Part shown: one piece after another, positions 5,610-54,681 of the stretch
How positions within the stretch are numbered: position 1 is the first letter of the stretch
Layout of the letters: every line of letters begins with the position of its first letter
The notes under the pieces: model-generated
The model's input: the letters and a program-made list of their open reading frames with translations, nothing else
Databases searched by the model: none
What the model was told of the DNA's origin: nothing
Assembly: GCA_903831305.1 (NCBI GenBank)
Contig: CAIKXE010000004.1
Location: 83,524 to 147,523 of the forward strand
Source of the DNA: an uncultured bacterium
GTDB lineage: Bacteria; Patescibacteriota; Minisyncoccia; Phycocordibacterales; GWA1-40-21
Length of the DNA: 64,000 bases
Direction: 5' to 3'
Position numbers and translations under genes: made by a program

Positions 5610-6101
5610 CTATTGTCGGTGGCAGGCAAAGTAGGTGAGACCGGTGGCGATGGCATCATACTCATCGTCATATTTGATTTTTTCGGTTATTGTTATGAGC
5701 TTTTTTACCATCATTATGACTTGGCTCTTATCACTTTTACCATAACCAGTGACCGCTACTTTTATTTGTAGGGGGGTAAATTCTTTTATATCCAAATTAT
5801 TTTTAGCGGCCTCGTAAAGCATTACTCCCCGGGCTTCAGATACCCGCATGGCGGTTTTGGCGTTGGTTTTAAAAAAGAGGGTCTCAATCGCCAGGGCCTC
5901 TGGCGCATATTTTTTAATTAAAGTGGATATTTCTATACCAATCAGGTGCAGTCTCTCTTCGGCGGTCTCGGTGGCCAAAGTTTTAAAACATTCAGAAAAA
6001 AGAAGGACTTCTTTTCCGTTGTTTTTTTCGAGGATAGCAATACCCACTCGTTCATAACCAGGATCAATGGCAATAATTTTCATATTATGATTATAACACA
6101 A
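5610..6101 (-). CDS. ruvC: crossover junction endodeoxyribonuclease RuvC
   Basis: MKIIAIDPGYERVGIAIL N-terminus typical of RuvC. Confidence 0.88.
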   Translation of the reverse strand: MCYNHNMKIIAIDPGYERVGIAILEKNNGKEVLLFSECFKTLATETAEERLHLIGIEISTLIKKYAPEALAIETLFFKTNAKTAMRVSEARGVMLYEAAKNNLDIKEFTPLQIKVAVTGYGKSDKSQVIMMVKKLITITEKIKYDDEYDAIATGLTYFACHRQ

Positions 6102-6152
6102 CCGCCCCGGTCATCAGAATGACCACCCCGCCTTAACTAAGGCGGGGATTAG
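6096..6152. repeat. two-hairpin miniature repeat element, copy A
   Basis: CACAACCGCCCC-GGTCATCAGAATGACC-ACCCCGCCTTAACTAAGGCGGGG; related copies at 20581-20640 and inside polA. Confidence 0.6.
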
Positions 6153-9870: not shown

Positions 9871-9954
9871 CTTAGTTAGATATCTTGATAATCTTTCCCT
9901 GGTGTTACCTGTGTGGGTGCTCAGTGGAAGGAACAAAGAAGTTAGGAGGTTGAG

Positions 9955-10158
9955 ATGAAGAAGGTCTTTGTTTGTCTGGTGATGGTCGGGGTTTGTTTGG
10001 CGGCTGGAGGGTGCTTGATGCCGTATGACCCTTATGCCGGAGGGGTCTATGTGGAACCCGTCCCTCGGCCTTACTACGGTCCGGTGGTCGTCGTTCCGCC
10101 ACCTCCCGTCTACTACCATCACCGGCCACCACCTCCGCGTTACTACCGCCATCGGTAG
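9955..10158 (+). CDS. small Pro/Tyr-rich lipoprotein (67 aa) in GC-rich island
   Basis: signal peptide plus lipobox LAAGGC; strong SD; G/C-ending codons unlike neighbours. Confidence 0.5.
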   Translation: MKKVFVCLVMVGVCLAAGGCLMPYDPYAGGVYVEPVPRPYYGPVVVVPPPPVYYHHRPPPPRYYRHR

Positions 10159-10174
10159 GAATGCGGTAGGGCCA

Positions 10175-10213
10175 GGGCGCGCTTTGTGGAAGCTGATACC
10201 TTCCCCGAGCGCG
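10175..10213 (+). terminator. GC-rich hairpin plus T run
   Basis: agggcgcgc...gagcgcgctctttttgttt. Confidence 0.5.
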
Positions 10214-10250
10214 CTCTTTTTGTTTATAAAATTTATGCTAAAGTATAAAT

Positions 10251-10741: not shown

Positions 10742-13210
10742 ATGGCCAAGATAAACCCTAAAGAAAAATCTCGGGCAGGTAAAAAACTAGTGTTGCTAGA
10801 TGTGCATGCTATCATCCACCGGGCGTATCACGCCTTGCCAGAATTTGTGTCTAGTAAAGGTGTGCCAACCGGCGCTTTATATGGCCTTTCTACCATGCTG
10901 CTAAAAATCATTGGGGATATCAAACCGGACTATATCATGGCTTGTTATGATTTGCCCAAGCCCACTTACCGTCATGAAGCTTACAAGGATTATAAAGCCG
11001 GCCGAGCCAAGACAGATGACGAACTAGTGGCCCAGCTGAAGAAGTCTCGGGAGATCTTTGAAGCTTTTGATATACCAATTTATGATAAAGAGGGTTTTGA
11101 GGCGGATGATATGATCGGCACCTTGGTGGAAAAAGTGTTGAAGTTGGACAAGGCCTCGCCTTGTCCGGAAATTGACGTGGTGATTGCTTCTGGCGATATG
11201 GATACTTTACAGCTAGTGGTGGATGACCGTGTGCGGGTCTATACTTTAAAAAAGGGGATTAAAGATACAATTATTTATAATGAAAAAGCGGTGGTGGAGC
11301 GTTTTGGTTTTTTGCCTAAACTTTTGCCAGATTATAAAGGCCTCCGGGGTGATCCGTCTGACAACATTATTGGTATTAAAGGAATCGGGGAGAAGACAGC
11401 CGGGATTTTAATTCAAAACTTTGGGGGTATAGAGGACATTTATAAAAAATTAAAAGCTAAAGGAGGAAAGGAAGAATTTAAAAAAGCGGGGATCACTGAC
11501 CGAATAGTAAAACTGCTAGAAGAGGGGGAAGAGGAAGCTGAGTTTTCTAAAATGCTTGGAACGATAAGGCGAGATGCGCCGATTGATTTTAAAATTCCGG
11601 AAAAGACTTGGTCGGAAAATCTGGCGGAAGAAAAGGTGCTTAAGTTGTGGAGTGAGTTGGAGTTTAGGACTTTGGGGACAAGATTAAAAGAATTGGTGGG
11701 TGGAAAGGCGGGGGAAAGTGTGGCCGAGAAAAAAGAAGCTATAGTAAAGCAGAATAATCAGTTATTCGCGGATAGTGACTTGTCTGAGACTGAGCTAAAA
11801 GAAGCTCAGATTGCCCTCTGGCTTGTCAATTCCAATATTACGGACCCGAAAATTGAAGATATTATTAACCTGTCTGGACAAAAGGATTTGAAGTCCGCCA
11901 AAGACTTTTTGTTGGCGGAAATTAAAAATAAAAAATTAGATTATGTTTTCACGGAGATTGAGAAACCCCTAATTCCGATTATTAAAGAGATGGAAGCTTG
12001 GGGAATTGTGGTAGATAAAGAGGCCCTTTTGAAATTGTCCGTGGAGAATCACAAGATTTTGGCTGATTTGGAAAAGAAAATTTGGGATTTGGCTGGTAGT
12101 GAATTTAATATAAATTCCCCTAAACAGATGGGAGAGATTTTATTTGATAAGATGGGTTTGCAAGTGAAGAATCAAAAGAAAACGGCTGGTGGTAAAGCTT
12201 CCACTAAGGAAAGCGAGCTGGAAAAAATGCGGGATTTAGACCCGATCATCCCTTTGATTCTAGAATATCGCGAATTGCAGAAAATGCTCTCCACTTATAT
12301 TGATAATATTCCAAACATGGTGGCGCCAGATGGACGCTTGCATGCTCGGTTTTTACAAACTGGAACCACCACTGGACGCATGTCATCGCAAGATCCAAAC
12401 CTACAAAACATTCCGAATAAAAGTGGCCTAGGAATGGAGGTGCGGAAGGCTTTTAAAGCGGGACCGGGCTGTAAGTTAGTAGCTTTTGATTATTCGCAGA
12501 TTGAAATCCGTATTGCTGCCTTTCTATCCGGCGATGAAAAACTTTTGGAGATTTTTAGAAAAGGGGAGGATGTTCACACCGCCGTGGCCTCGGAAGTATT
12601 TGGCGTACCACTCAACCAGGTGGACAAAGAAATGCGCCGAAAAGCTAAAGTAATTAACTTTGGTATTATGTATGGGATGGGTGTTTCCGCTCTTAAACAA
12701 AACCTGGGCACAGAACGAGCGGAAGCGCAAAAGTTTTATGATGATTATTTTGCTAAATTCAGTGGTCTGGCCAAATATTTGGATAAGGTAAAAGAGGAGA
12801 CTAAACAAACCGGGTTTACAGAAACACTGTTTGGTCGCCGTCGCTATTTTGAGGGTATCAAGTCTAAAATTCCTTTTATTAAGGCCATGGCCGAGCGTAT
12901 GGCTATAAATGCGCCAATTCAAGGGACAGAGGCGGATATTATAAAACTAGCGATGATTAAGGTGGGGGAATTTTTGAGCACAACCGCCCCTAACCCCTCC
13001 TTAACTAAGGAGGGGGAGGGAAAGAAAAATATCCACCTGTTGTTACAGGTTCATGATGAACTCGTTTATGAGATGCCGGTGGAAATGGTGGAAAAAATAG
13101 CCCCTAGAATAAAAGAAATCATGGAAAACGTGGTTAGTTTAGAAAAAACTAAAGGCGTGGTCTGCAAGGTGGATTATAAAGTGGGGGATAATTGGGGCGA
13201 GATGAAATAA
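10742..13210 (+). CDS. polA: DNA polymerase I (5' nuclease + polymerase; 3'-5' exo region reduced)
   Basis: 5'-nuclease N-terminus; motif A DYSQIEIR; motif B RRKAKVINFGIMYG; motif C QVHDE; carries in-frame repeat-derived insert. Confidence 0.92.
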   Translation: MAKINPKEKSRAGKKLVLLDVHAIIHRAYHALPEFVSSKGVPTGALYGLSTMLLKIIGDIKPDYIMACYDLPKPTYRHEAYKDYKAGRAKTDDELVAQLKKSREIFEAFDIPIYDKEGFEADDMIGTLVEKVLKLDKASPCPEIDVVIASGDMDTLQLVVDDRVRVYTLKKGIKDTIIYNEKAVVERFGFLPKLLPDYKGLRGDPSDNIIGIKGIGEKTAGILIQNFGGIEDIYKKLKAKGGKEEFKKAGITDRIVKLLEEGEEEAEFSKMLGTIRRDAPIDFKIPEKTWSENLAEEKVLKLWSELEFRTLGTRLKELVGGKAGESVAEKKEAIVKQNNQLFADSDLSETELKEAQIALWLVNSNITDPKIEDIINLSGQKDLKSAKDFLLAEIKNKKLDYVFTEIEKPLIPIIKEMEAWGIVVDKEALLKLSVENHKILADLEKKIWDLAGSEFNINSPKQMGEILFDKMGLQVKNQKKTAGGKASTKESELEKMRDLDPIIPLILEYRELQKMLSTYIDNIPNMVAPDGRLHARFLQTGTTTGRMSSQDPNLQNIPNKSGLGMEVRKAFKAGPGCKLVAFDYSQIEIRIAAFLSGDEKLLEIFRKGEDVHTAVASEVFGVPLNQVDKEMRRKAKVINFGIMYGMGVSALKQNLGTERAEAQKFYDDYFAKFSGLAKYLDKVKEETKQTGFTETLFGRRRYFEGIKSKIPFIKAMAERMAINAPIQGTEADIIKLAMIKVGEFLSTTAPNPSLTKEGEGKKNIHLLLQVHDELVYEMPVEMVEKIAPRIKEIMENVVSLEKTKGVVCKVDYKVGDNWGEMK
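12979..13025 (+). repeat. partial copy of the two-hairpin repeat element inserted in-frame in polA (encodes ~TAPNPSLTKEGEGKK)
   Basis: CACAACCGCCCC-TAA-CCCCTCCTTAACTAAGGAGGGGGAGGG shares 5' 12-mer and hairpin 2 with copies A/B. Confidence 0.55.
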
Positions 13211-19997: not shown

Positions 19998-20567
19998 TTA
20001 TTGTTTTCCTAAGTGTTTGAGAGCCGCTTTGACTCGGTCACTCGTGGTAATAAGGCTCTTATCTATTTCCTGAAGGGCTTCACGTGATTCACGGTGAGAA
20101 TAGCCTAAGGATTTTAAGGCCTCTAGAGCGTCAATCTCTTCTTTGAGACCGAGACTTACTTCTTCATAGCTACCAAGTTTGCCCTTGAGCTCTAGCACTA
20201 TTTTATCAGCCATCTTTTTACCCAAGCCAGAAACTTTGGTCAGGTGAGCGGTCTCCCCGGTGGAAATAGCTTTACGCAATGAATCCACCGTGGCAACATT
20301 TAGTATCCCTAACGCCGTCTTAGGCCCGACGCCGGAGATAGTAATCAATAATTCAAAAAAGTCCAATTCTTTTTTATCCGCAAAACCATAAAGGTCCAGG
20401 GCATTCTCTCGGACAGCGAGGTACGTCCAGATCTTTTGGGTCAGATCCACTTTAGCTAGGTTTAATAATTCAGTGGTACCAAACACCTTATAACCAATGT
20501 TATTGGTTTCTACGATGACAAATTTGTCGGCTTTATAGATTATCTTTCCAGTTATTTGTGAGATCAT
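19998..20567 (-). CDS. ruvA: Holliday junction DNA helicase RuvA
   Basis: MISQITGKI..., HhH pairs (GVGPKTAL), C-terminal RuvB-binding domain. Confidence 0.9.
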   Translation of the reverse strand: MISQITGKIIYKADKFVIVETNNIGYKVFGTTELLNLAKVDLTQKIWTYLAVRENALDLYGFADKKELDFFELLITISGVGPKTALGILNVATVDSLRKAISTGETAHLTKVSGLGKKMADKIVLELKGKLGSYEEVSLGLKEEIDALEALKSLGYSHRESREALQEIDKSLITTSDRVKAALKHLGKQ

Positions 20568-20580
20568 AAATTAATTATAG

Positions 20581-20640
20581 CACACCACCCCGGTTATCAG
20601 AATAACCACCCCTCCTTGACTAAGGAGGGGAAAGGGGAGG
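20581..20640. repeat. two-hairpin miniature repeat element, copy B
   Basis: CACACCACCCC-GGTTATCAGAATAACC-ACCCCTCCTTGACTAAGGAGGGG-AAAGGGGAGG; compensatory changes relative to copy A. Confidence 0.6.
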
Positions 20641-20705
20641 TCATGTTGCTTTTTTGTCTTGTCTGTGTTATCTTTTCTTGGCAATAACTAATTAATAAAA
20701 AATCA

Positions 20706-32731: not shown

Positions 32732-33856
32732 ATGAAAAAAATATACATATATTTAGGTTTAGTTGTTATTGTGCTTGCGGGGGCGGTTATGGTTTCTAGA
32801 AATCAAACCACACTTGGGCCGGTCAAGATCGGCGTTATCGGTCCAGTGACTGGTAGCTCCGCTGGGGTTTATTATGAGCCATTGAAAAAGGGGATTGATA
32901 TTGCTCTGGCGGGGATAAACAAGAGTGGTACTAAATTAGCGGTGGTGTATGAGGATGATCAGCTAGATGGTAAATTATCAGTTTCGGCCTATGCTAAATT
33001 AAAAGCAGAAGGTGTGCGGTACTTTATCCTAAACGGTAGTCCAGCGGCGGCCGCCGTCGCTCCACTGATCAAGGCTGATGGAAACGTGTCCATGGTGCCC
33101 TCAGCCCTCCTGACGGCTTACAAGGATGATAGCCCTCTGACTTGCCGTATTGCTCTGACCGCTGACAATTATGGTCCAGCTTTCACTGATTTGTTCTTAA
33201 ATAAATTAGATAAGAAGCAAATAGTCACCTTGGTTTCAAATACCGAGGGGGCGATGGCTATCTATAATGTATTCAAGGAAAAGTTTGAGGCCGCAGGCGG
33301 GCAGATAGTCCAGGCGGAAACCTTTGGCAAGGATGACATTGATTTCCGTACCCAGATTACTAAAATCAAAGCTAATAAAAAAGCCGAAGCGATTGTGGTT
33401 ATAAACTGGTCAAGCACTATTGTACCTATGCTTACTCAGATAAAAGAACTTGGCCTGACCTTACCGATCTTTGGTGACACGGGGACAATCAAGAATGCGG
33501 CTATCAAGGATTTGACTCTGGCTAACGGAATTACTTTCTTGGACTATTCTTTCACCACTGATGGTAACAATGTTTCAGGCATTGCTCAGAAATTTATCAG
33601 TGATTATGCTTCCTTAAATGGTGGAAGCAAGCCGAGTATCCAAGCCCTCCAAGGTCATGACTCTGTAAGTATCCTGGCTCATGCTCTTGCTCAGGCTGAT
33701 GCTAAGAACCCAACCAGTGTGGCAAACTATATTGTAAATAATATTAAGGATTATGAGCTGGCCGGTGGTAAATTCTCCTTCAACAGTACCTGTGAAGCTG
33801 ATAGAGATATTGCCGTCAGACAAGTGGTAAACGGGGAGATTGTAGATGTAAAATAA
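32732..33856 (+). CDS. ABC transporter substrate-binding protein, Leu/Ile/Val-binding family (SBP-2)
   Basis: VKIGVIGPVTGSSAGVYYE; paralog of SBP-1/3. Confidence 0.8.
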   Translation: MKKIYIYLGLVVIVLAGAVMVSRNQTTLGPVKIGVIGPVTGSSAGVYYEPLKKGIDIALAGINKSGTKLAVVYEDDQLDGKLSVSAYAKLKAEGVRYFILNGSPAAAAVAPLIKADGNVSMVPSALLTAYKDDSPLTCRIALTADNYGPAFTDLFLNKLDKKQIVTLVSNTEGAMAIYNVFKEKFEAAGGQIVQAETFGKDDIDFRTQITKIKANKKAEAIVVINWSSTIVPMLTQIKELGLTLPIFGDTGTIKNAAIKDLTLANGITFLDYSFTTDGNNVSGIAQKFISDYASLNGGSKPSIQALQGHDSVSILAHALAQADAKNPTSVANYIVNNIKDYELAGGKFSFNSTCEADRDIAVRQVVNGEIVDVK

Positions 33857-42203: not shown

Positions 42204-42593
42204 ATGAAAATTTCAACGGTAAACATTGAAGAAAGGAAGAAACTGGTCCTCAAGGCCGGTGATACGGTGCGTGTTCACCAGAAGATTGTGGAAGGTGACA
42301 AGTCCCGAATCCAGATTTTTGAAGGTTTAGTCATTGGCCGTAAGCATGGTGATGAAGCCGGTGGTACTATCACTGTCCGTAAGGTGATTGATGGGGTAGG
42401 GGTAGAGAGAATCTTCCCATTTTACTCTCCAAACATTGCTAAATTTGAAGTTGTCAGAAAGTCCAAGACCCGCCGTTCCAAGCTCTACAATATCCGAGAC
42501 AAAGCCGCCAAGGAAATCCGTCGTAAGATGAAAAACATCATCAATGCTAAGGAACCAGTAGAAGTAGCCGAGGCTCCAGCTGAAACTAAATAA
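42204..42593 (+). CDS. rplS: 50S ribosomal protein L19
   Basis: typical L19 sequence ([22 protein letters not shown]). Confidence 0.9.
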
Positions 42594-42602
42594 ATTAAAT
42601 TT

Positions 42603-42632
42603 AAAAACCCCGGTTATGATAACCGGGGTTTT
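42603..42632 (+). terminator. hairpin aaaaccccggttat-ga-ataaccggggtttt
   Basis: perfect palindrome; shares the CCCCGGTTAT 10-mer with repeat copy B. Confidence 0.7.
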
Positions 42633-42696
42633 TAGTTGTATATTAATTGGTAGACGCTACAGGTTTGAGGTATTTCTTTTAGCGTGATACATTTAT

Positions 42697-50202: not shown

Positions 50203-51130
50203 ATATCTTGTTATATTGTTGATAAACAATCTTATGAAAAAAGGTTTTACCCACACCCTAAATTTTAAAAGAAAGTTAGTATGTGGGTTTACATTACTCG
50301 AAATCCTCCTCGTCGTCGGCATCATCGCTGTCCTGGCCGGCATTGTTATTTTAGCTATTAATCCTACGAAACAGTTCTCCAATATCCGTAATACTCAAAG
50401 AAAGATGAATCTAGCGGAAATCAACAAAGCCTTATACCAATACTATATAGATAATAGCGGTTATCCTTCCACTCTCACCACCACCTTAACCGAAATATGT
50501 AACACCGGTACTGGTACTACTACCCACAGTGTAGTCTGTACTGGACTTATCGACCTCTCGGCTCTCGTCCCCACTTATTTAGTAGCTATCCCCGCTGATC
50601 CCCAAGCTACCTCTACCAATGCTTTATATAAGGTGATGAAGGGTACCAATAATAAACCCTATGTCAGTGCAGCTTCAGCTGAGCTTGGGGTAACGGTTGA
50701 GTTGGGGACGGCACCACCGGCTGTGGTTCCTTGTGGTGACCCTACTAGTGAGGCTTGTTGGTCGACGATTGCTAGTAGTAAAGCTTGGGGACCATCTGGT
50801 GTAACTACTGGTGCCCAAAGTAATACTGACGGATCGGCAAATACAGTAATCTTGGCCGGTTTAGCTGGTAGTTATCCGGCAGCGGAATATTGTGACGCTC
50901 TGTCAGAAGGAGGTTATACTGATTGGTATTTACCAGCTAAGGATCAGTTATTTTCTGGTCGTGTAGCTCTCGGTTTGTCTGGTTTCCCGAGTGGTGTTTA
51001 TTATTGGTCATCTACTGAGAATCAAAACTATCCAGGTGACGGCGCTTGGTTCCTGGATACCGACTACGGTGGCAGCATGGGCGACTACTACGATAAGATC
51101 AATCAGTTCTCCATTCGTTGTCTTCGCTAG
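50189..51130 (+). CDS. type IV pilin-like protein with C-terminal DUF1566 (Lcl-like) domain
   Basis: prepilin motif G-FTLLEILLVVGIIAVLAGI; C-terminal YTDWYLPAKDQL...YYWSSTE...RCLR. Confidence 0.65.
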   Translation: MLFLKYLVILLINNLMKKGFTHTLNFKRKLVCGFTLLEILLVVGIIAVLAGIVILAINPTKQFSNIRNTQRKMNLAEINKALYQYYIDNSGYPSTLTTTLTEICNTGTGTTTHSVVCTGLIDLSALVPTYLVAIPADPQATSTNALYKVMKGTNNKPYVSAASAELGVTVELGTAPPAVVPCGDPTSEACWSTIASSKAWGPSGVTTGAQSNTDGSANTVILAGLAGSYPAAEYCDALSEGGYTDWYLPAKDQLFSGRVALGLSGFPSGVYYWSSTENQNYPGDGAWFLDTDYGGSMGDYYDKINQFSIRCLR

Positions 51131-52740: not shown

Positions 52741-54681
52741 ATGAAAAGAAACCACGGTTTTACATTACTTGAAATCCTCCTCGTCGTCGGTCTCATCGCT
52801 ATCCTCGCTGGTATCGTGATTCTTGCCCTAAATCCCACCAAGATGTTCTCCCAAGTCCGTAATGCTCAGCGTAAGGCTAATCTGACAGAAATCAATAAAG
52901 CCGTCTACCAATATTATATTGATAACTCCCGTTATCCCGCCACCTTAACCTCCATCGCCACTGAGATCTGTAATACCGGGGCTACTTCTACTGGTCATAG
53001 TATAAGCTGTACTGGTTTGATTGACCTCTCAGCTCTCGTCCCTACTTATATGGTCGCCATCCCCACTGACCCCAGTGGGGCCATAAATACCGGTGGAGCC
53101 GGTTATAAAATAGCTAGTGACCCTATTGGTAAACCGTACCTTCAAGCCTCTCGCGCGGAACTCTCGGTCAGTATTTACATTGGTAATAGCACTGGAGTTC
53201 TAGGTACAAACTGGGATATGCCTGGAAGCTGGACTACACCTACTACAACCGGTAATCTCCGTTACTGGGTGGCCTCCTCGGCTGGCTCTTGGAATGATAC
53301 CGCTAACTGGTCTACTACCTCTGGTGGAGCGGGTGGCTCCTCGGTCCCCGGTTCTACCGAGGATGCCTACTTTGATGGTAGTGGAAATGGAGCTTGTACC
53401 ATAAATGCCACCGTCAATGTTAAAGGTCTAATCCTAGAAGGCTATTCCGGCACTATCACTCAAGGCTCCTATGCTGTGACGGTGGGGACTGATGGTTACT
53501 CTCAAGCCTCGGGGACCTTTACTGGTTCAGGTGCTGGCTCAGCGGTTACTGTAAATGGTATCTATAAATTGGCGGGAGGGGTGTTTACAGGGACAAGTGG
53601 GACGTTAACCGTGGCTGGTAATTTTACTAAAACGAATGGGACGTTTGCGCATAATAGCGGGACGACAAAAATGACTGGCTACGGGAGTACCTTTACTAGT
53701 GGTGGTACTACCTTTGGTAGTCTTACTTTTTATTCAACTGCCTATACCGCAAATCCATATGTCCTAGCCGACGATTTTGTTGTAGCAGGAGATTTAACAA
53801 TATCTTCAGCCGCATATGGATGGGTTACAGCCATATCTCCTCGCACAATTACCCTTCAAAGTAATTTTTATCAAACAACATCTTTTAATAGTGCACTTGG
53901 TGGTTTTGATACGAGTAATATAACTCTTATTATGACAGGAAGCGGAAAGACTTTTACTCTCTCATCCGGACAATTCAAAGCTAACTTAAGTTTACAAGGT
54001 GCAACTACATTAGCTTACTCAGCATATTTACCTAATTATTCTGGGACTCTCACTATTGATGCAAGTGTGGGTCTTGGCGCGGCATTAAATTGTGGTTCAT
54101 TAGTCATAAATTCCGGTAAGACCCTCACCACAAACAACTATGATGTTACCATTAGCGGCTCCTTAATTAATAGTGGCACGTTTACTTTGGGAACAAGTAA
54201 TGTAACATTAAGAAATGCATACAATTCAATAGTAACTCATACAACTGGTGGTATTGCCTTTAATAATCTGACACTTGGTGGAGCGAGTATAACTGGATCT
54301 CAAATATTAGCGGATAATTTTACAGTAGCTGGGACTTTGACGATCGGCGACGTCTCCTGGCTAAATACGGTTACTGCCACTTCTACTCGAACGATTACTC
54401 TTCAGGGTAATTTTGTTCAGACATTGCTTTCTAATAGTAACCTCGGCGGTTTTGATACAAGTAACATTACTCTTAATATGACAGGAAGCGGAAAGACTAT
54501 TAATTTTACTCAGGGTAAATTTAAGGCTAATTTAAATATTGCTAATTCTGCCTCAATTTCTTTGGTTAATAATTTAGTTGTTACTAGTGCCACGACTACT
54601 ATAAATGCCGGTGGTACATTAAACAAAATGGGCTATACCTTGACCGGGACTTTAGTAAATAATGGTACTCTAATACCTTAA
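52741..54681 (+). CDS. large type IV pilin-like protein (646 aa) with Thr/Gly/Ser-rich internally repeated C-terminal region
   Basis: prepilin motif G-FTLLEILLVVGLIAILAGI; N-terminal 140 aa paralogous to 50189 ORF; tandem ~180-aa repeats. Confidence 0.65.
   Translation: MKRNHGFTLLEILLVVGLIAILAGIVILALNPTKMFSQVRNAQRKANLTEINKAVYQYYIDNSRYPATLTSIATEICNTGATSTGHSISCTGLIDLSALVPTYMVAIPTDPSGAINTGGAGYKIASDPIGKPYLQASRAELSVSIYIGNSTGVLGTNWDMPGSWTTPTTTGNLRYWVASSAGSWNDTANWSTTSGGAGGSSVPGSTEDAYFDGSGNGACTINATVNVKGLILEGYSGTITQGSYAVTVGTDGYSQASGTFTGSGAGSAVTVNGIYKLAGGVFTGTSGTLTVAGNFTKTNGTFAHNSGTTKMTGYGSTFTSGGTTFGSLTFYSTAYTANPYVLADDFVVAGDLTISSAAYGWVTAISPRTITLQSNFYQTTSFNSALGGFDTSNITLIMTGSGKTFTLSSGQFKANLSLQGATTLAYSAYLPNYSGTLTIDASVGLGAALNCGSLVINSGKTLTTNNYDVTISGSLINSGTFTLGTSNVTLRNAYNSIVTHTTGGIAFNNLTLGGASITGSQILADNFTVAGTLTIGDVSWLNTVTATSTRTITLQGNFVQTLLSNSNLGGFDTSNITLNMTGSGKTINFTQGKFKANLNIANSASISLVNNLVVTSATTTINAGGTLNKMGYTLTGTLVNNGTLIP

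Follow-up and report, generated by a model that had tools for sequence, protein, structure and literature searches.

An in-frame repeat insertion in polA, its likely membership of a triplex-type repeat class and the association of its family with DUF559 endonuclease genes

The short repeat at 12977-13025 of the window (the whole 64-kb stretch of DNA analysed) is likely to be an inserted and translated short form of a triplex-type repeat, from a family that brackets DUF559 genes. This judgement is on the explanation as a whole, of which we infer the mobilising step. That a dispersed repeat has inserted in frame in polA of this Paceibacteria (CPR) bacterium, as a real and heritable change, is close to certain.

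A short form of a dispersed repeat is translated within polA

One repeat is present in three copies in the window, at 6095-6152, 12977-13020 (inside polA) and 20578-20647. The features discussed below are:

10742-13210, + strand: polA (DNA polymerase I, 822 aa), host gene of the insertion; an ORF whose homologs carry PF02739, PF01367 and PF00476
12977-13025, + strand: in-frame polA copy of the repeat, a short form without hairpin 1, encoding S746-K762 (STTAPNPSLTKEGEGKK)
12982-12990, + strand: C-box AACCGCCCC of the polA copy, whose complement GGGGCGGTT is the third-strand block of the triplex motif
12994-13015, + strand: hairpin 2 of the polA copy, CCCCTCCTT-AACT-AAGGAGGGG, with a 9-bp stem
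6095-6152, + strand: full-length copy with C-box, hairpin 1 (GGTCAT-CAGA-ATGACC) and hairpin 2, lying between yebC (stop) and ruvC (start); 80.7 bits
20578-20647, + strand: full-length copy with a right box (GGGGAGGT), between ruvA and rpsT; 75.3 bits on the + strand and 28.9 bits on the - strand

The bit scores are those of covariance model R1, trained on 22 Paceibacteria-type copies. It matched the 44 bases of the polA copy (12977-13020) at 46.6 bits and E = 1e-11 and detected no further copies in the 64 kb, the next-best match having E = 0.07. The hairpin pattern CCCCKCCTTRACTAAGGMGGGG has three exact matches (6126-6147, 12994-13015 and 20609-20630), with zero expected from 100 shuffles. 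Within polA, CACAACCGCCCC-TAA-CCCCTCCTTAACTAAGGAGGGGGAGGG was found on the + strand at 12979-13020, and the reading frame is open across the gene. The preliminary description, of a palindromic mini-repeat that sits in frame in polA, leaves the ORF intact and shares its second hairpin with the intergenic copies, was thus borne out. Its 12-nt left box, described as common to both intergenic copies, is identical in the copy at 6097 but the copy at 20581 reads CACACCACCCC.

Chance resemblance between a low-complexity loop and the intergenic repeats would be another source of such a match, and the insert does encode a short peptide with much Pro, Gly and Lys. Against this, the polA copy has a covariance-model E value of 1e-11, no match is expected from shuffles, and some relatives carry a full two-hairpin element at the same polA spot. 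Chance similarity is already refuted and retains practically no probability.

The polA copy has a predicted fold of -24.2 kcal/mol (z = -4.2), and the insert is the repeat translated in its sole open sense frame. The same insertion is present in the independent assemblies L001 (JGI) and L008 (NCBI) and is therefore no assembly artefact. Klentaq aligned to the window PolA at E = 8e-87. The segment from PIQG to QVHDE has 49 residues in the window PolA compared to 39 in empty orthologs, a net gain of 10 (14 against Taq) and not the approximately 15 added residues first proposed. The insert does occupy a loop, as proposed, but its site is immediately N-terminal of motif C, about 100 residues past motif B. 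In the AlphaFold model it forms a low-confidence loop (pLDDT <50 for residues 748-760) with a long helix (711-746) on one side and the motif C strand (765-770) on the other. With this predicted position, on the surface in a flexible loop that directly precedes motif C, the polymerase probably tolerates the insert. The copy may have persisted by landing in the one sense frame that is open, within such a loop.

The polA site turns over between related genomes

In 88 of the 115 homologs readable by the scan, including the closest relative (87% identity), the PIQG-QVHDE segment has a length of 39 aa; the closest ortholog, L002, lacks the copy. A segment of 46-78 aa occurs in 12 close relatives in addition to the window PolA, and the extra residues are the translated repeat (e.g. 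NRPGYQNNHPSLTKEG in P0031). The insert is thus lineage-specific, orthologs with an ancestral 39-residue segment being found beside insert-bearing ones. Nothing that would count against the preliminary description was seen, neither relatives lacking the repeat family with the same insert nor a motif confined to polA. The alleles of about 12 relatives comprise short, long, nested and decayed versions of the repeat, and at the DNA level the same Leu codon precedes every one of them. The insert replaces two to three ancestral codons, with no target-site duplication or clean empty/filled junction definable.

In bootstrapped neighbour-joining trees, the window PolA and P0024 formed a pair at 100%, yet their elements are of different subtypes, differing in left box, hairpin 1 and loop. 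The empty P0001 was sister to this pair (100%), and filled and empty alleles also grouped as P0030 with P0042 (97%) and P0032 with P0040 (94%), the first of each being filled. Quartet sites split 30/13/3; in the quartet analysis for a recombination tract around the insert, the 'filled together' signal was limited to the insert and one flanking residue. Presence and absence of the repeat conflict with well-supported polA clades, indicating that the site turns over. In this group the polA site behaves as a hot spot that is filled, probably converted, and emptied again.

A single ancient insertion followed by decay or deletion alone, with no re-insertion or conversion, would account for the codon boundary common to all alleles and for the clear decay products: left box plus TAA in P0005 and P0007, left box in P0008 and right part in P0004. 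However, the empty alleles keep ancestral xKENLLDKV codons that are missing from the filled ones, and so cannot derive from filled alleles by deletion. The sister relationships of filled and empty alleles (94-100% bootstrap) and the different subtypes of the window PolA and P0024 also argue against a single event, which we regard as improbable. Turnover that includes re-insertion or conversion is preferred.

The intergenic copies are unlikely to be a regulatory site

Presence or absence varies among syntenic relatives at all three window sites. The yebC-ruvC spacer is just 17 nt in L001 and holds a copy in L123; at the ruvA-rpsT site the left box alone is kept in L001 and nothing in L004. The window copy at this second site has left and right boxes that pair in the predicted fold.

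All three window copies lie in or beside repair genes (polA, ruvC and ruvA), and the TGnTATAAT boxes that both intergenic copies abut end 6 nt short of the start codons of ruvC and ruvA. This favours a regulatory role in a DNA-repair regulon, as an operator or as a promoter module. Such a role is countered by L001, where ruvC and ruvA lack the element and polA has it, and by L004, with no copy upstream of ruvA. The -10 box is native, because L001 has it too. Elsewhere, copies adjoin unrelated genes (e.g. in the rpsJ-rplC spacer) and their orientation relative to neighbouring genes is near random. A regulatory site is thus largely refuted and very unlikely. An SOS/LexA-type operator for ruvA, ruvC and polA was rejected because relatives lack the intergenic copies. 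Shine-Dalgarno sequestration (AAGGAGG with CCUCCUU) was unsupported: in most cases the hairpin lies at least about 50 nt from starts, or else downstream of a gene, and its orientation shows no bias.

The repeat has the architecture of intrastrand-triplex motifs

The repeat consists of a C-rich 9-mer (the C-box, AACC[A/G]CCCC), an optional small hairpin with a covarying stem (hairpin 1) and a conserved 9-bp hairpin (hairpin 2, CCCCTCCTT..AAGGAGGGG). Its ends are AACCNCCCC / GGGGNGGTT and its full form is 58-70 bp long. The G-rich strand reads as three 9-nt blocks, CCCCTCCTT / AAGGAGGGG / GGGG[T/C]GGTT (pyrimidine, purine and G/T), which judging by their sequence could form C-G·G and T-A·T triads; CCCCTCCTTAGTTAAGGAGGGGTTAGGGGCGGTT is the CPR-variant sequence and a candidate triplex former. 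Triads are possible at 8/9 positions in the polA copy and both intergenic window copies, at 9/9 in polA alleles C, D and E, and at 9/9 in E. coli TMECO by the same rule. The hairpin 2 stem is paired at 97.5% over 22 copies, with double changes. Pairing across the repeat family is 92%, with nine pairs showing double changes, a level reached by 0 of 500 shuffles. The C-box covaries with the hairpin arms, a G:C pair going with G in 10/10 cases. At the second variable position, T:A goes with T in 5/6.

The BoxC/PIT/TMECO repeats of enterobacteria, on record since the 1990s, have no known function or mode of spread and only a statistical link to genome instability (PMC4666352). As intrastrand-triplex motifs they were treated by Holder et al. 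(2015, NAR 43:10126), who cite earlier work of Hoyne/Maher (2000); the motifs are defined with loops of 1-6 nt (ITxF), and a triplex was not demonstrable in duplex DNA or in vivo (PMC4666352). Our repeat resembles them in its three consecutive 9-nt blocks (C-rich, complementary G-rich and second G-rich) with C-G·G and T-A·T/A triads, and in its dozens of dispersed copies, single or in inverted doublets. Its stems are likewise more conserved than its loops, its loci hypervariable between close relatives and its function not known. The polA copy has all three blocks, a stem within 6-15 nt and at most one mismatch, and its loops of 4 nt (AACT) and 3 nt (TAA) lie within the 1-6 nt range; the 17-nt second loop of the intergenic window copies, which holds hairpin 1, lies beyond it.

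The blocks themselves differ, being CCCCTCCTT/AAGGAGGGG/GGGGTGGTT compared to CCCTCNCCC/GGGNGAGGG/GGGNGAGGG in TMECO. As the TMECO consensus CCCTCNCCC N3-6 GGGNGAGGG N3 GGGNGAGGG is not matched, the repeat is a variant of the triplex class and not a TMECO. Unlike TMECO, it often has an extra covarying hairpin within its second loop, occurs in frame in a gene and is associated with DUF559 genes; TMECO was reported in 262 proteobacterial genomes, always intergenic and never tied to a mobility gene (PMC4666352). The novelty first claimed for CPR genomes is therefore reduced to that of a sequence variant of a widespread class, but we found no paper reporting the BoxC/PIT/TMECO class in CPR genomes or inside genes. 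The triplex-repeat class would thus extend to reduced CPR genomes and many phyla as a distinct sequence variant, able to live as a translated loop inside an essential enzyme.

The conserved structure could instead be that of an RNA, either a cis element or a small RNA, with the DNA features secondary. Hairpin 1 has covarying stems and conserved loops (CAGA, UUCG and CUGCG) on the C-box strand, loops such as UUCG hinting at selection on RNA rather than DNA. The folds are strong (z -4.2 to -5.7), and the two boxes of DUF559 units could pair across the mRNA. By contrast, copies show no strand bias relative to flanking genes, and no Rfam family was matched at the repeat, even at E <= 1 in six repeat-rich loci, or at the gathering threshold in the window. 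Stem sequence is conserved beyond pairing whilst loops vary, which points to sequence-specific DNA recognition, and the mirror-type covariation fits a purine-motif triplex, said to be unable to form in RNA (PMC4666352). A structured RNA is thus a rather unlikely basis for the repeat, and a triplex-type DNA element is favoured.

Inverted repeat copies bracket DUF559 endonuclease genes

The repeat hairpin was found at more than 115 genome loci, which share the C-box, variable hairpin and hairpin 2 and span many phyla (CPR, Nitrospirota, Bacteroidota and others). Among about 150 copies, in-frame genic ones occurred only in polA, a DUF5107/TPR gene (L041) and a CxxCxxCC gene (L113). Both full copies and doublets are palindromes, with ends that recur in the units bearing a gene. 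Solo and doublet copies are far commoner than such units. In the units, inverted copies typically bracket a gene for a ~110-125 aa DUF559 (Vsr-like PD-(D/E)xK) endonuclease; the flanked genes matched PF04480 DUF559 at E = 1e-26 to 1e-33. A DUF559 gene was directly flanked by the repeat at 13/119 repeat loci.

The association was also found from the protein side. Of 80 DUF559 loci collected solely by similarity of their proteins, 67 had a covariance-model match at E <= 0.01 and 54 had a hairpin within 200 nt, compared to 4 hairpins in 121 kb of far flank. The same model detects the polA copy and the DUF559 flanks. No DUF559 gene is present within the 64-kb window; the relative MAG GCA_964485905.1 combines a DUF559 unit (L026) with solo copies and a polA insert (L121). 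It is thus very likely that the repeat both belongs to the triplex-repeat class and brackets DUF559 genes, the latter association being apparently new.

In REP/REPIN-RAYT systems, short GC-rich hairpin repeats form singlets, inverted doublets and tandem clusters, and a small nuclease-type gene, usually present once, lies between inverted copies (PMC3116915, PMC3337134). Our repeat occurs in the same arrangements, with inverted copies around a small nuclease-type gene. Unlike RAYT, the flanked gene encodes a PD-(D/E)xK DUF559 protein and no HUH Y1 transposase, and the stem is conserved across phyla whereas REPs are lineage-specific. The conserved GTAG or CGTC tag described at one end of REP palindromes (PMC3733652) is absent from the repeat ends. 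One member of the Vsr/DUF559 clade of PD-(D/E)xK nucleases is the homing endonuclease of a group I intron (PMC3424549). The polA insert resembles Vsr-like homing elements in being sporadic at one site of a conserved gene, with DUF559 in the same protein clade, but it has no ORF and is unspliced, and other copies lie at unrelated sites. MITEs combine terminal inverted repeats and a target-site duplication with a related autonomous IS. In our repeat, copies are palindromic with common unit ends, and the empty/filled sites have no definable target-site duplication. DUF559 is not a known transposase.

The preliminary description had drawn a parallel with Rickettsia palindromic elements, which are ~100-150 bp long, restricted to Rickettsia and found within ORFs in nearly half of their copies (Ogata et al. 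2000, summarised in PMC10969869). The outcome is alike: a short palindromic repeat with no encoded transposase is translated in frame in an essential gene, at a fold-compatible position that leaves the host protein intact and is predicted to be on its surface. However, the polA copy is 44 bp and the full form 58-70 bp, almost every copy lies between genes and the family is spread across phyla. The likeness is an analogy of outcome only.

Copies may spread, or be overwritten, by breakage and repair or gene conversion at structure-prone DNA, and the conserved palindromic stem is a possible target on which the DUF559 nuclease would act in trans. We put DUF559 forward only tentatively as the mobilising enzyme. 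Were DUF559 proteins the partner enzymes of BoxC/PIT-type repeats as well, the result would be a REP/RAYT-like system, present from enterobacteria to CPR, in which a PD-(D/E)xK nuclease recognises the conserved CCCCTCC..GGAGGGG stem or its triplex. Nuclease breaks and repair would then account for repeat spread, unstable loci and the repeated filling, overwriting and emptying of the same polA codon, a homing-like behaviour of a 44-130 bp element without an ORF. For annotation, 'hypothetical' peptides such as PSLTKEG in conserved proteins can be repeat-derived.

A possible counterpart in E. coli and other window features

At its 3' end, E. coli ycjD continues into a hairpin resembling BoxC, with TMECO no. 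9 ~170 nt downstream. Model R1 gave no match on this ycjD-BoxC region (E = 0.9). Some O157:H7 strains have ~14 TMECO copies, and another O157:H7 strain, 86-24, lacks ycjD at its K-12 locus between fabI and sapF, an indirect comparison as its genome is different from those of the ~14-copy strains. Across complete E. coli genomes ycjD is present in 62% and TMECO counts, taken separately, range from 1 to 32. The ycjD-TMECO link in E. coli is thus loose. That DUF559 proteins (YcjD and relatives) are the missing partner enzyme of BoxC/PIT-type triplex repeats is a speculative proposal, which we regard as less likely than not. DUF559 bracketing makes the old BoxC puzzle testable in E. coli via ycjD. 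A literature search by repeat sequence string returned nothing relevant.

Within the window, a candidate fourth copy at 42587-42622 was rejected as an ordinary intrinsic terminator, and weak covariance-model matches at 88-126 and 32773-32793 were attributed to chance. A GC-rich patch at 9900-10230, suspected of encoding an RNA, proved to be a small Pro/Tyr-rich ORF.

A dispersed repeat lies in frame within polA

The sequence quoted in the preliminary description was confirmed at 12979-13020, within the polA ORF. The conserved hairpin of the repeat (hairpin 2), written as the pattern CCCCKCCTTRACTAAGGMGGGG, has exactly three matches in the 64 kb, at 6126, 12994 and 20609, with 0 expected (100 shuffles). 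A covariance model built on 22 Paceibacteria-type copies scored the three sites at 80.7, 46.6 and 75.3 bits and gave no further copy in the 64 kb with E below 0.07, weak matches being due to chance.

6095-6152: repeat copy, outside polA
10742-13210, + strand: polA, ORF of 822 codons
12977-13020: repeat copy within polA
20578-20647: repeat copy, outside polA

The polA copy consists of the left box (C-box) and hairpin 2, with a TAA trinucleotide in place of the small hairpin 1 (GGTYAT-CAGA-ATRACC) present in both other window copies. It folds at -24.2 kcal/mol (z = -4.2).

The names carried by PolA homologs suggest that the organism is a CPR bacterium of the Paceibacteria/Parcubacteria type. Both PIQGT and QVHDE were located in 115 of 120 PolA homologs, and the segment running from the first motif to the second was compared in these. 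It spans 39 residues in 88 of the 115 (..YLxKENLLDKVxLLLQVHDE), a group that takes in P0001, the closest relative at 87% identity, and almost every homolog under about 70%. The window PolA has 49 residues here and 12 further close relatives have 46-78. In P0031 the segment NRPGYQNNHPSLTKEG is the full two-hairpin element, translated in the same frame as in the window. With empty 39-residue orthologs beside filled ones, the core of the earlier reading, an in-frame insertion of a dispersed repeat in polA, stands. DNA was compared for eight orthologs, and all polA alleles start directly after the same Leu codon.

Table. Alleles at the polA site and the loci carrying them
Empty: L002
A: box-TA(A/G)-hairpin 2; window, L001, L008
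B: nested or duplicated form with hairpin 1; L003, L004
C: AACCACCCC, different hairpin 1, hairpin 2 with GAAA loop; L120, L121
D: subtype with compensating changes, CTCCTCC..GGAGGAG; L122
E: L123

Some shorter variants look like decay products: P0005 and P0007 retain box plus TAA, P0008 the box and P0004 the right part. Shortly downstream of polA, some relatives carry a gene for a reverse transcriptase (RVT_1) or a PF05635 four-helix protein (L121 8463-9515; L003 10264-10608), which may represent a diversity-generating or other retroelement.

In an alignment with Klentaq, the window PolA has 14 extra residues between the PVQGTAAD..KLAMVKL helix and the QVHDE strand. In the AlphaFold model (mean pLDDT 80), residues 748-760 fall below 50 and sit between helix 711-746 and strand 765-770. 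Taken together, alignment and model place the insert in a predicted flexible loop immediately before motif C, where the polymerase is predicted to tolerate it. Its original placement between motifs B and C was correct but loose, since it directly precedes motif C.

The repeat turns over at orthologous sites

A bootstrapped neighbour-joining tree of PolA, with the loop masked, joined the window protein and P0024 at 100% although their subtypes differ (A and C), with the empty P0001 as their sister (100%). Filled and empty proteins also paired as P0030 with P0042 (97%) and P0032 with P0040 (94%). The empty alleles retain ancestral codons missing from filled ones and thus are not deletion derivatives. 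Sister pairs, subtype differences and ancestral codons together require that copies were gained repeatedly, that other copies overwrote them or that alleles were exchanged over short tracts; by quartet analysis, any exchange tract is limited to about the insert itself.

The intergenic copies behave in the same way. In the syntenic relative L001 the yebC-ruvC spacer is 17 nt and only the left box lies upstream of ruvA, whilst in L123, which is more distant, the yebC-ruvC spacer again contains a copy. A conserved repair-gene operator had been considered because the three window copies all touch polA, ruvC or ruvA and the C-box abuts TGnTATAAT, but this variation among syntenic relatives led us to reject it. 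The TGnTATAAT boxes before ruvC and ruvA (6075-6100 and 20560-20590, minus strand; GTGTTATAATCATAATATG, GTGCTATAATTAATTTATG) end 6 nt from the ATG, with the C-box directly adjoining their TGn, and look like extended -10 promoters of leaderless mRNAs.

The repeat family spans several phyla

A 22-nt hairpin pattern, scanned in one genome per species, was found at at least 115 loci. The matches listed include Paceibacteria, other Patescibacteria, Nitrospirota, Bacteroidota (Pontibacter, Hymenobacter), Acidobacteriota, several Proteobacteria, a mussel symbiont and others, and all share one architecture: (C)AACC[A/G/T]CCCC, 2-30 nt, then the hairpin. The 2-30 nt stretch often forms a GC hairpin whose loop is UUCG, CUGCG or CAGA, and some copies have a complementary box, GGGGTGGTT, on the far side. 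Base pairing is intact in 92% of cells, and both sides have changed in nine pairs, which none of 500 shuffles equalled. No Rfam family matches the repeat.

Across all repeat loci the 5' arm of hairpin 2 is mirrored in the C-box, and the two covary: G accompanies a G:C pair in 10/10 cases and C a C:G pair in 2/2, and at the second variable position T accompanies a T:A pair in 5/6. This is what a triple helix would require. The covariation fits triad conservation; it could also reflect subfamily ancestry.

Copies in frame were also found in two other proteins.

L041 420-3665, - strand: in a Bacteroidales protein (..LPSLTKEGLG..), separating its DUF5107 and TPR parts
L113 4132-4800, - strand: two or three units, about 60 added residues inside a Chlorobiota CxxCxxCC (PF03692) domain

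The short form has only one sense and one antisense frame free of stops, which fits the rarity of genic copies. The parallel drawn earlier with Rickettsia palindromic elements holds by analogy for the outcome, an in-frame genic copy, but not for frequency, genic copies being rare in this family. The repeat unit also forms head-to-tail arrays, with periods of 41 and about 37 nt (L091 2168-2722 and L039 696-800), which might be taken for CRISPR arrays. Arrays flank a DUF559 gene on both sides in a Roizmanbacteria MAG and also occur in an Abditibacteriales MAG.

Inverted copies bracket DUF559 genes

The gene enclosed by two inverted copies a few hundred bases apart encodes a protein of about 115 residues, assigned to DUF559 by Pfam (PF04480, E = 1e-26 to 1e-33), a Vsr-like PD-(D/E)xK nuclease family. 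A DUF559 gene adjoins the repeat in 13 of the 119 repeat loci listed, mostly within a few tens of bases, in Paceibacteria, Nomurabacteria, Roizmanbacteria, Nitrospirota and Bacteroidota. Reciprocally, we took 80 DUF559 loci from metagenomes, chosen by protein similarity alone. The CCCCTCC..GGAGGGG hairpin lay within 200 nt of the gene in 54 (far flanks: 4 hairpins in 121 kb), and 67 had a covariance-model match at E <= 0.01, typically on the minus strand immediately upstream and on the plus strand immediately downstream. Units are usually ordered as [hairpin-GGGGTGGT]-gene-[ACCACCCC-hairpin], and doublets of this layout lacking the gene are common. One related MAG, GCA_964485905.1, combines a DUF559 unit with solo copies and a filled polA (L026, L027, L035, L055, L121).

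In E. coli K-12 the ORF of ycjD, the DUF559 member, terminates within a BoxC-like hairpin (L204 4030-4840). Beyond it come a remnant duplicated from the ycjD 3' end, situated between ycjD and BoxC no. 9, and TMECO no. 9. Of 5,426 complete E. coli genomes, 3,378 carry ycjD; beside sapF, O157:H7 strain 86-24 and JJ2434 (L205, L206) have an efflux operon in its place. TMECO copies number 18 per genome (median), with only 1-3 in ST131 and ATCC 25922.

In a survey of predicted invertible segments, 'DUF559 domain-containing protein' was 14-fold enriched among targeted genes (PMC9881135), consistent with inverted repeats around such genes, and a homing endonuclease belongs to the Vsr/DUF559 clade (PMC3424549). 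Judging by the literature that could be searched, the association of repeat and DUF559 is new.

The repeat is a variant of the BoxC/PIT/TMECO class

Inspection of E. coli ycjD led to BoxC and so to Holder et al. 2015 (PMC4666352), who described the BoxC/PIT/TMECO pattern CCCTCNCCC-N3-6-GGGNGAGGG-N3-GGGNGAGGG, counting 23 copies in K-12 and 3,610 across 262 proteobacterial genomes. These form an intrastrand purine-motif triplex in vitro, occupy loci that vary unusually between strains and were reported as always intergenic, with no mobility-related gene found nearby or linked to them (PMC4666352). On its G-rich strand the window-type repeat reads CCCCTCCTT-AGTT-AAGGAGGGG-(TTA or hairpin)-GGGG[T/C]GGTT. 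When a single rule (C-G*G, T-A*T/A) is applied, the window copies give 8/9 triads, and polA alleles C, D and E 9/9, as does TMECO. The E. coli copy gave no match with the covariance model of the window-type repeat. On these triad counts the repeat is, at the sequence level, a variant of the class and not itself a TMECO. The class is known yet unexplained; what appears new is the variant in CPR and across phyla, its in-frame presence in polA and turnover there, and its association with DUF559.

The repeat would spread, or be overwritten, by break-and-repair or gene conversion at structure-prone DNA, and the DUF559 nuclease would be the likely agent. The stem sequence is conserved across phyla whilst the loops vary, the pattern expected of a palindromic protein recognition site. 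Against such a role stand the absence of a DUF559 gene from the 64-kb window, the loose correlation in E. coli, the failure to find a target-site duplication and the lack of orientation bias relative to neighbouring genes. There is also room for a role at the RNA level, which the UUCG-type loops would suit.

Other features of the window

A patch of 55-63% GC was considered as an RNA but rejected; it is explained by a small ORF and has no Rfam match. The bidirectional intrinsic terminator at 42600-42640 (AAAAACCCCGGTTATGATAACCGGGGTTTTT) is of textbook form and lies outside the repeat family. Two pairs of diverged direct repeats (74-75% identity) are probably paralogous gene segments.

9955-10158, + strand: 67-codon Pro/Tyr-rich ORF, signal peptide and Cys (lipoprotein-like), AGGAGG ribosome-binding site, terminator
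50285-50584 and 52756-53055: diverged direct repeats, 300 nt
53823-53989 and 54369-54535: diverged direct repeats, 167 nt
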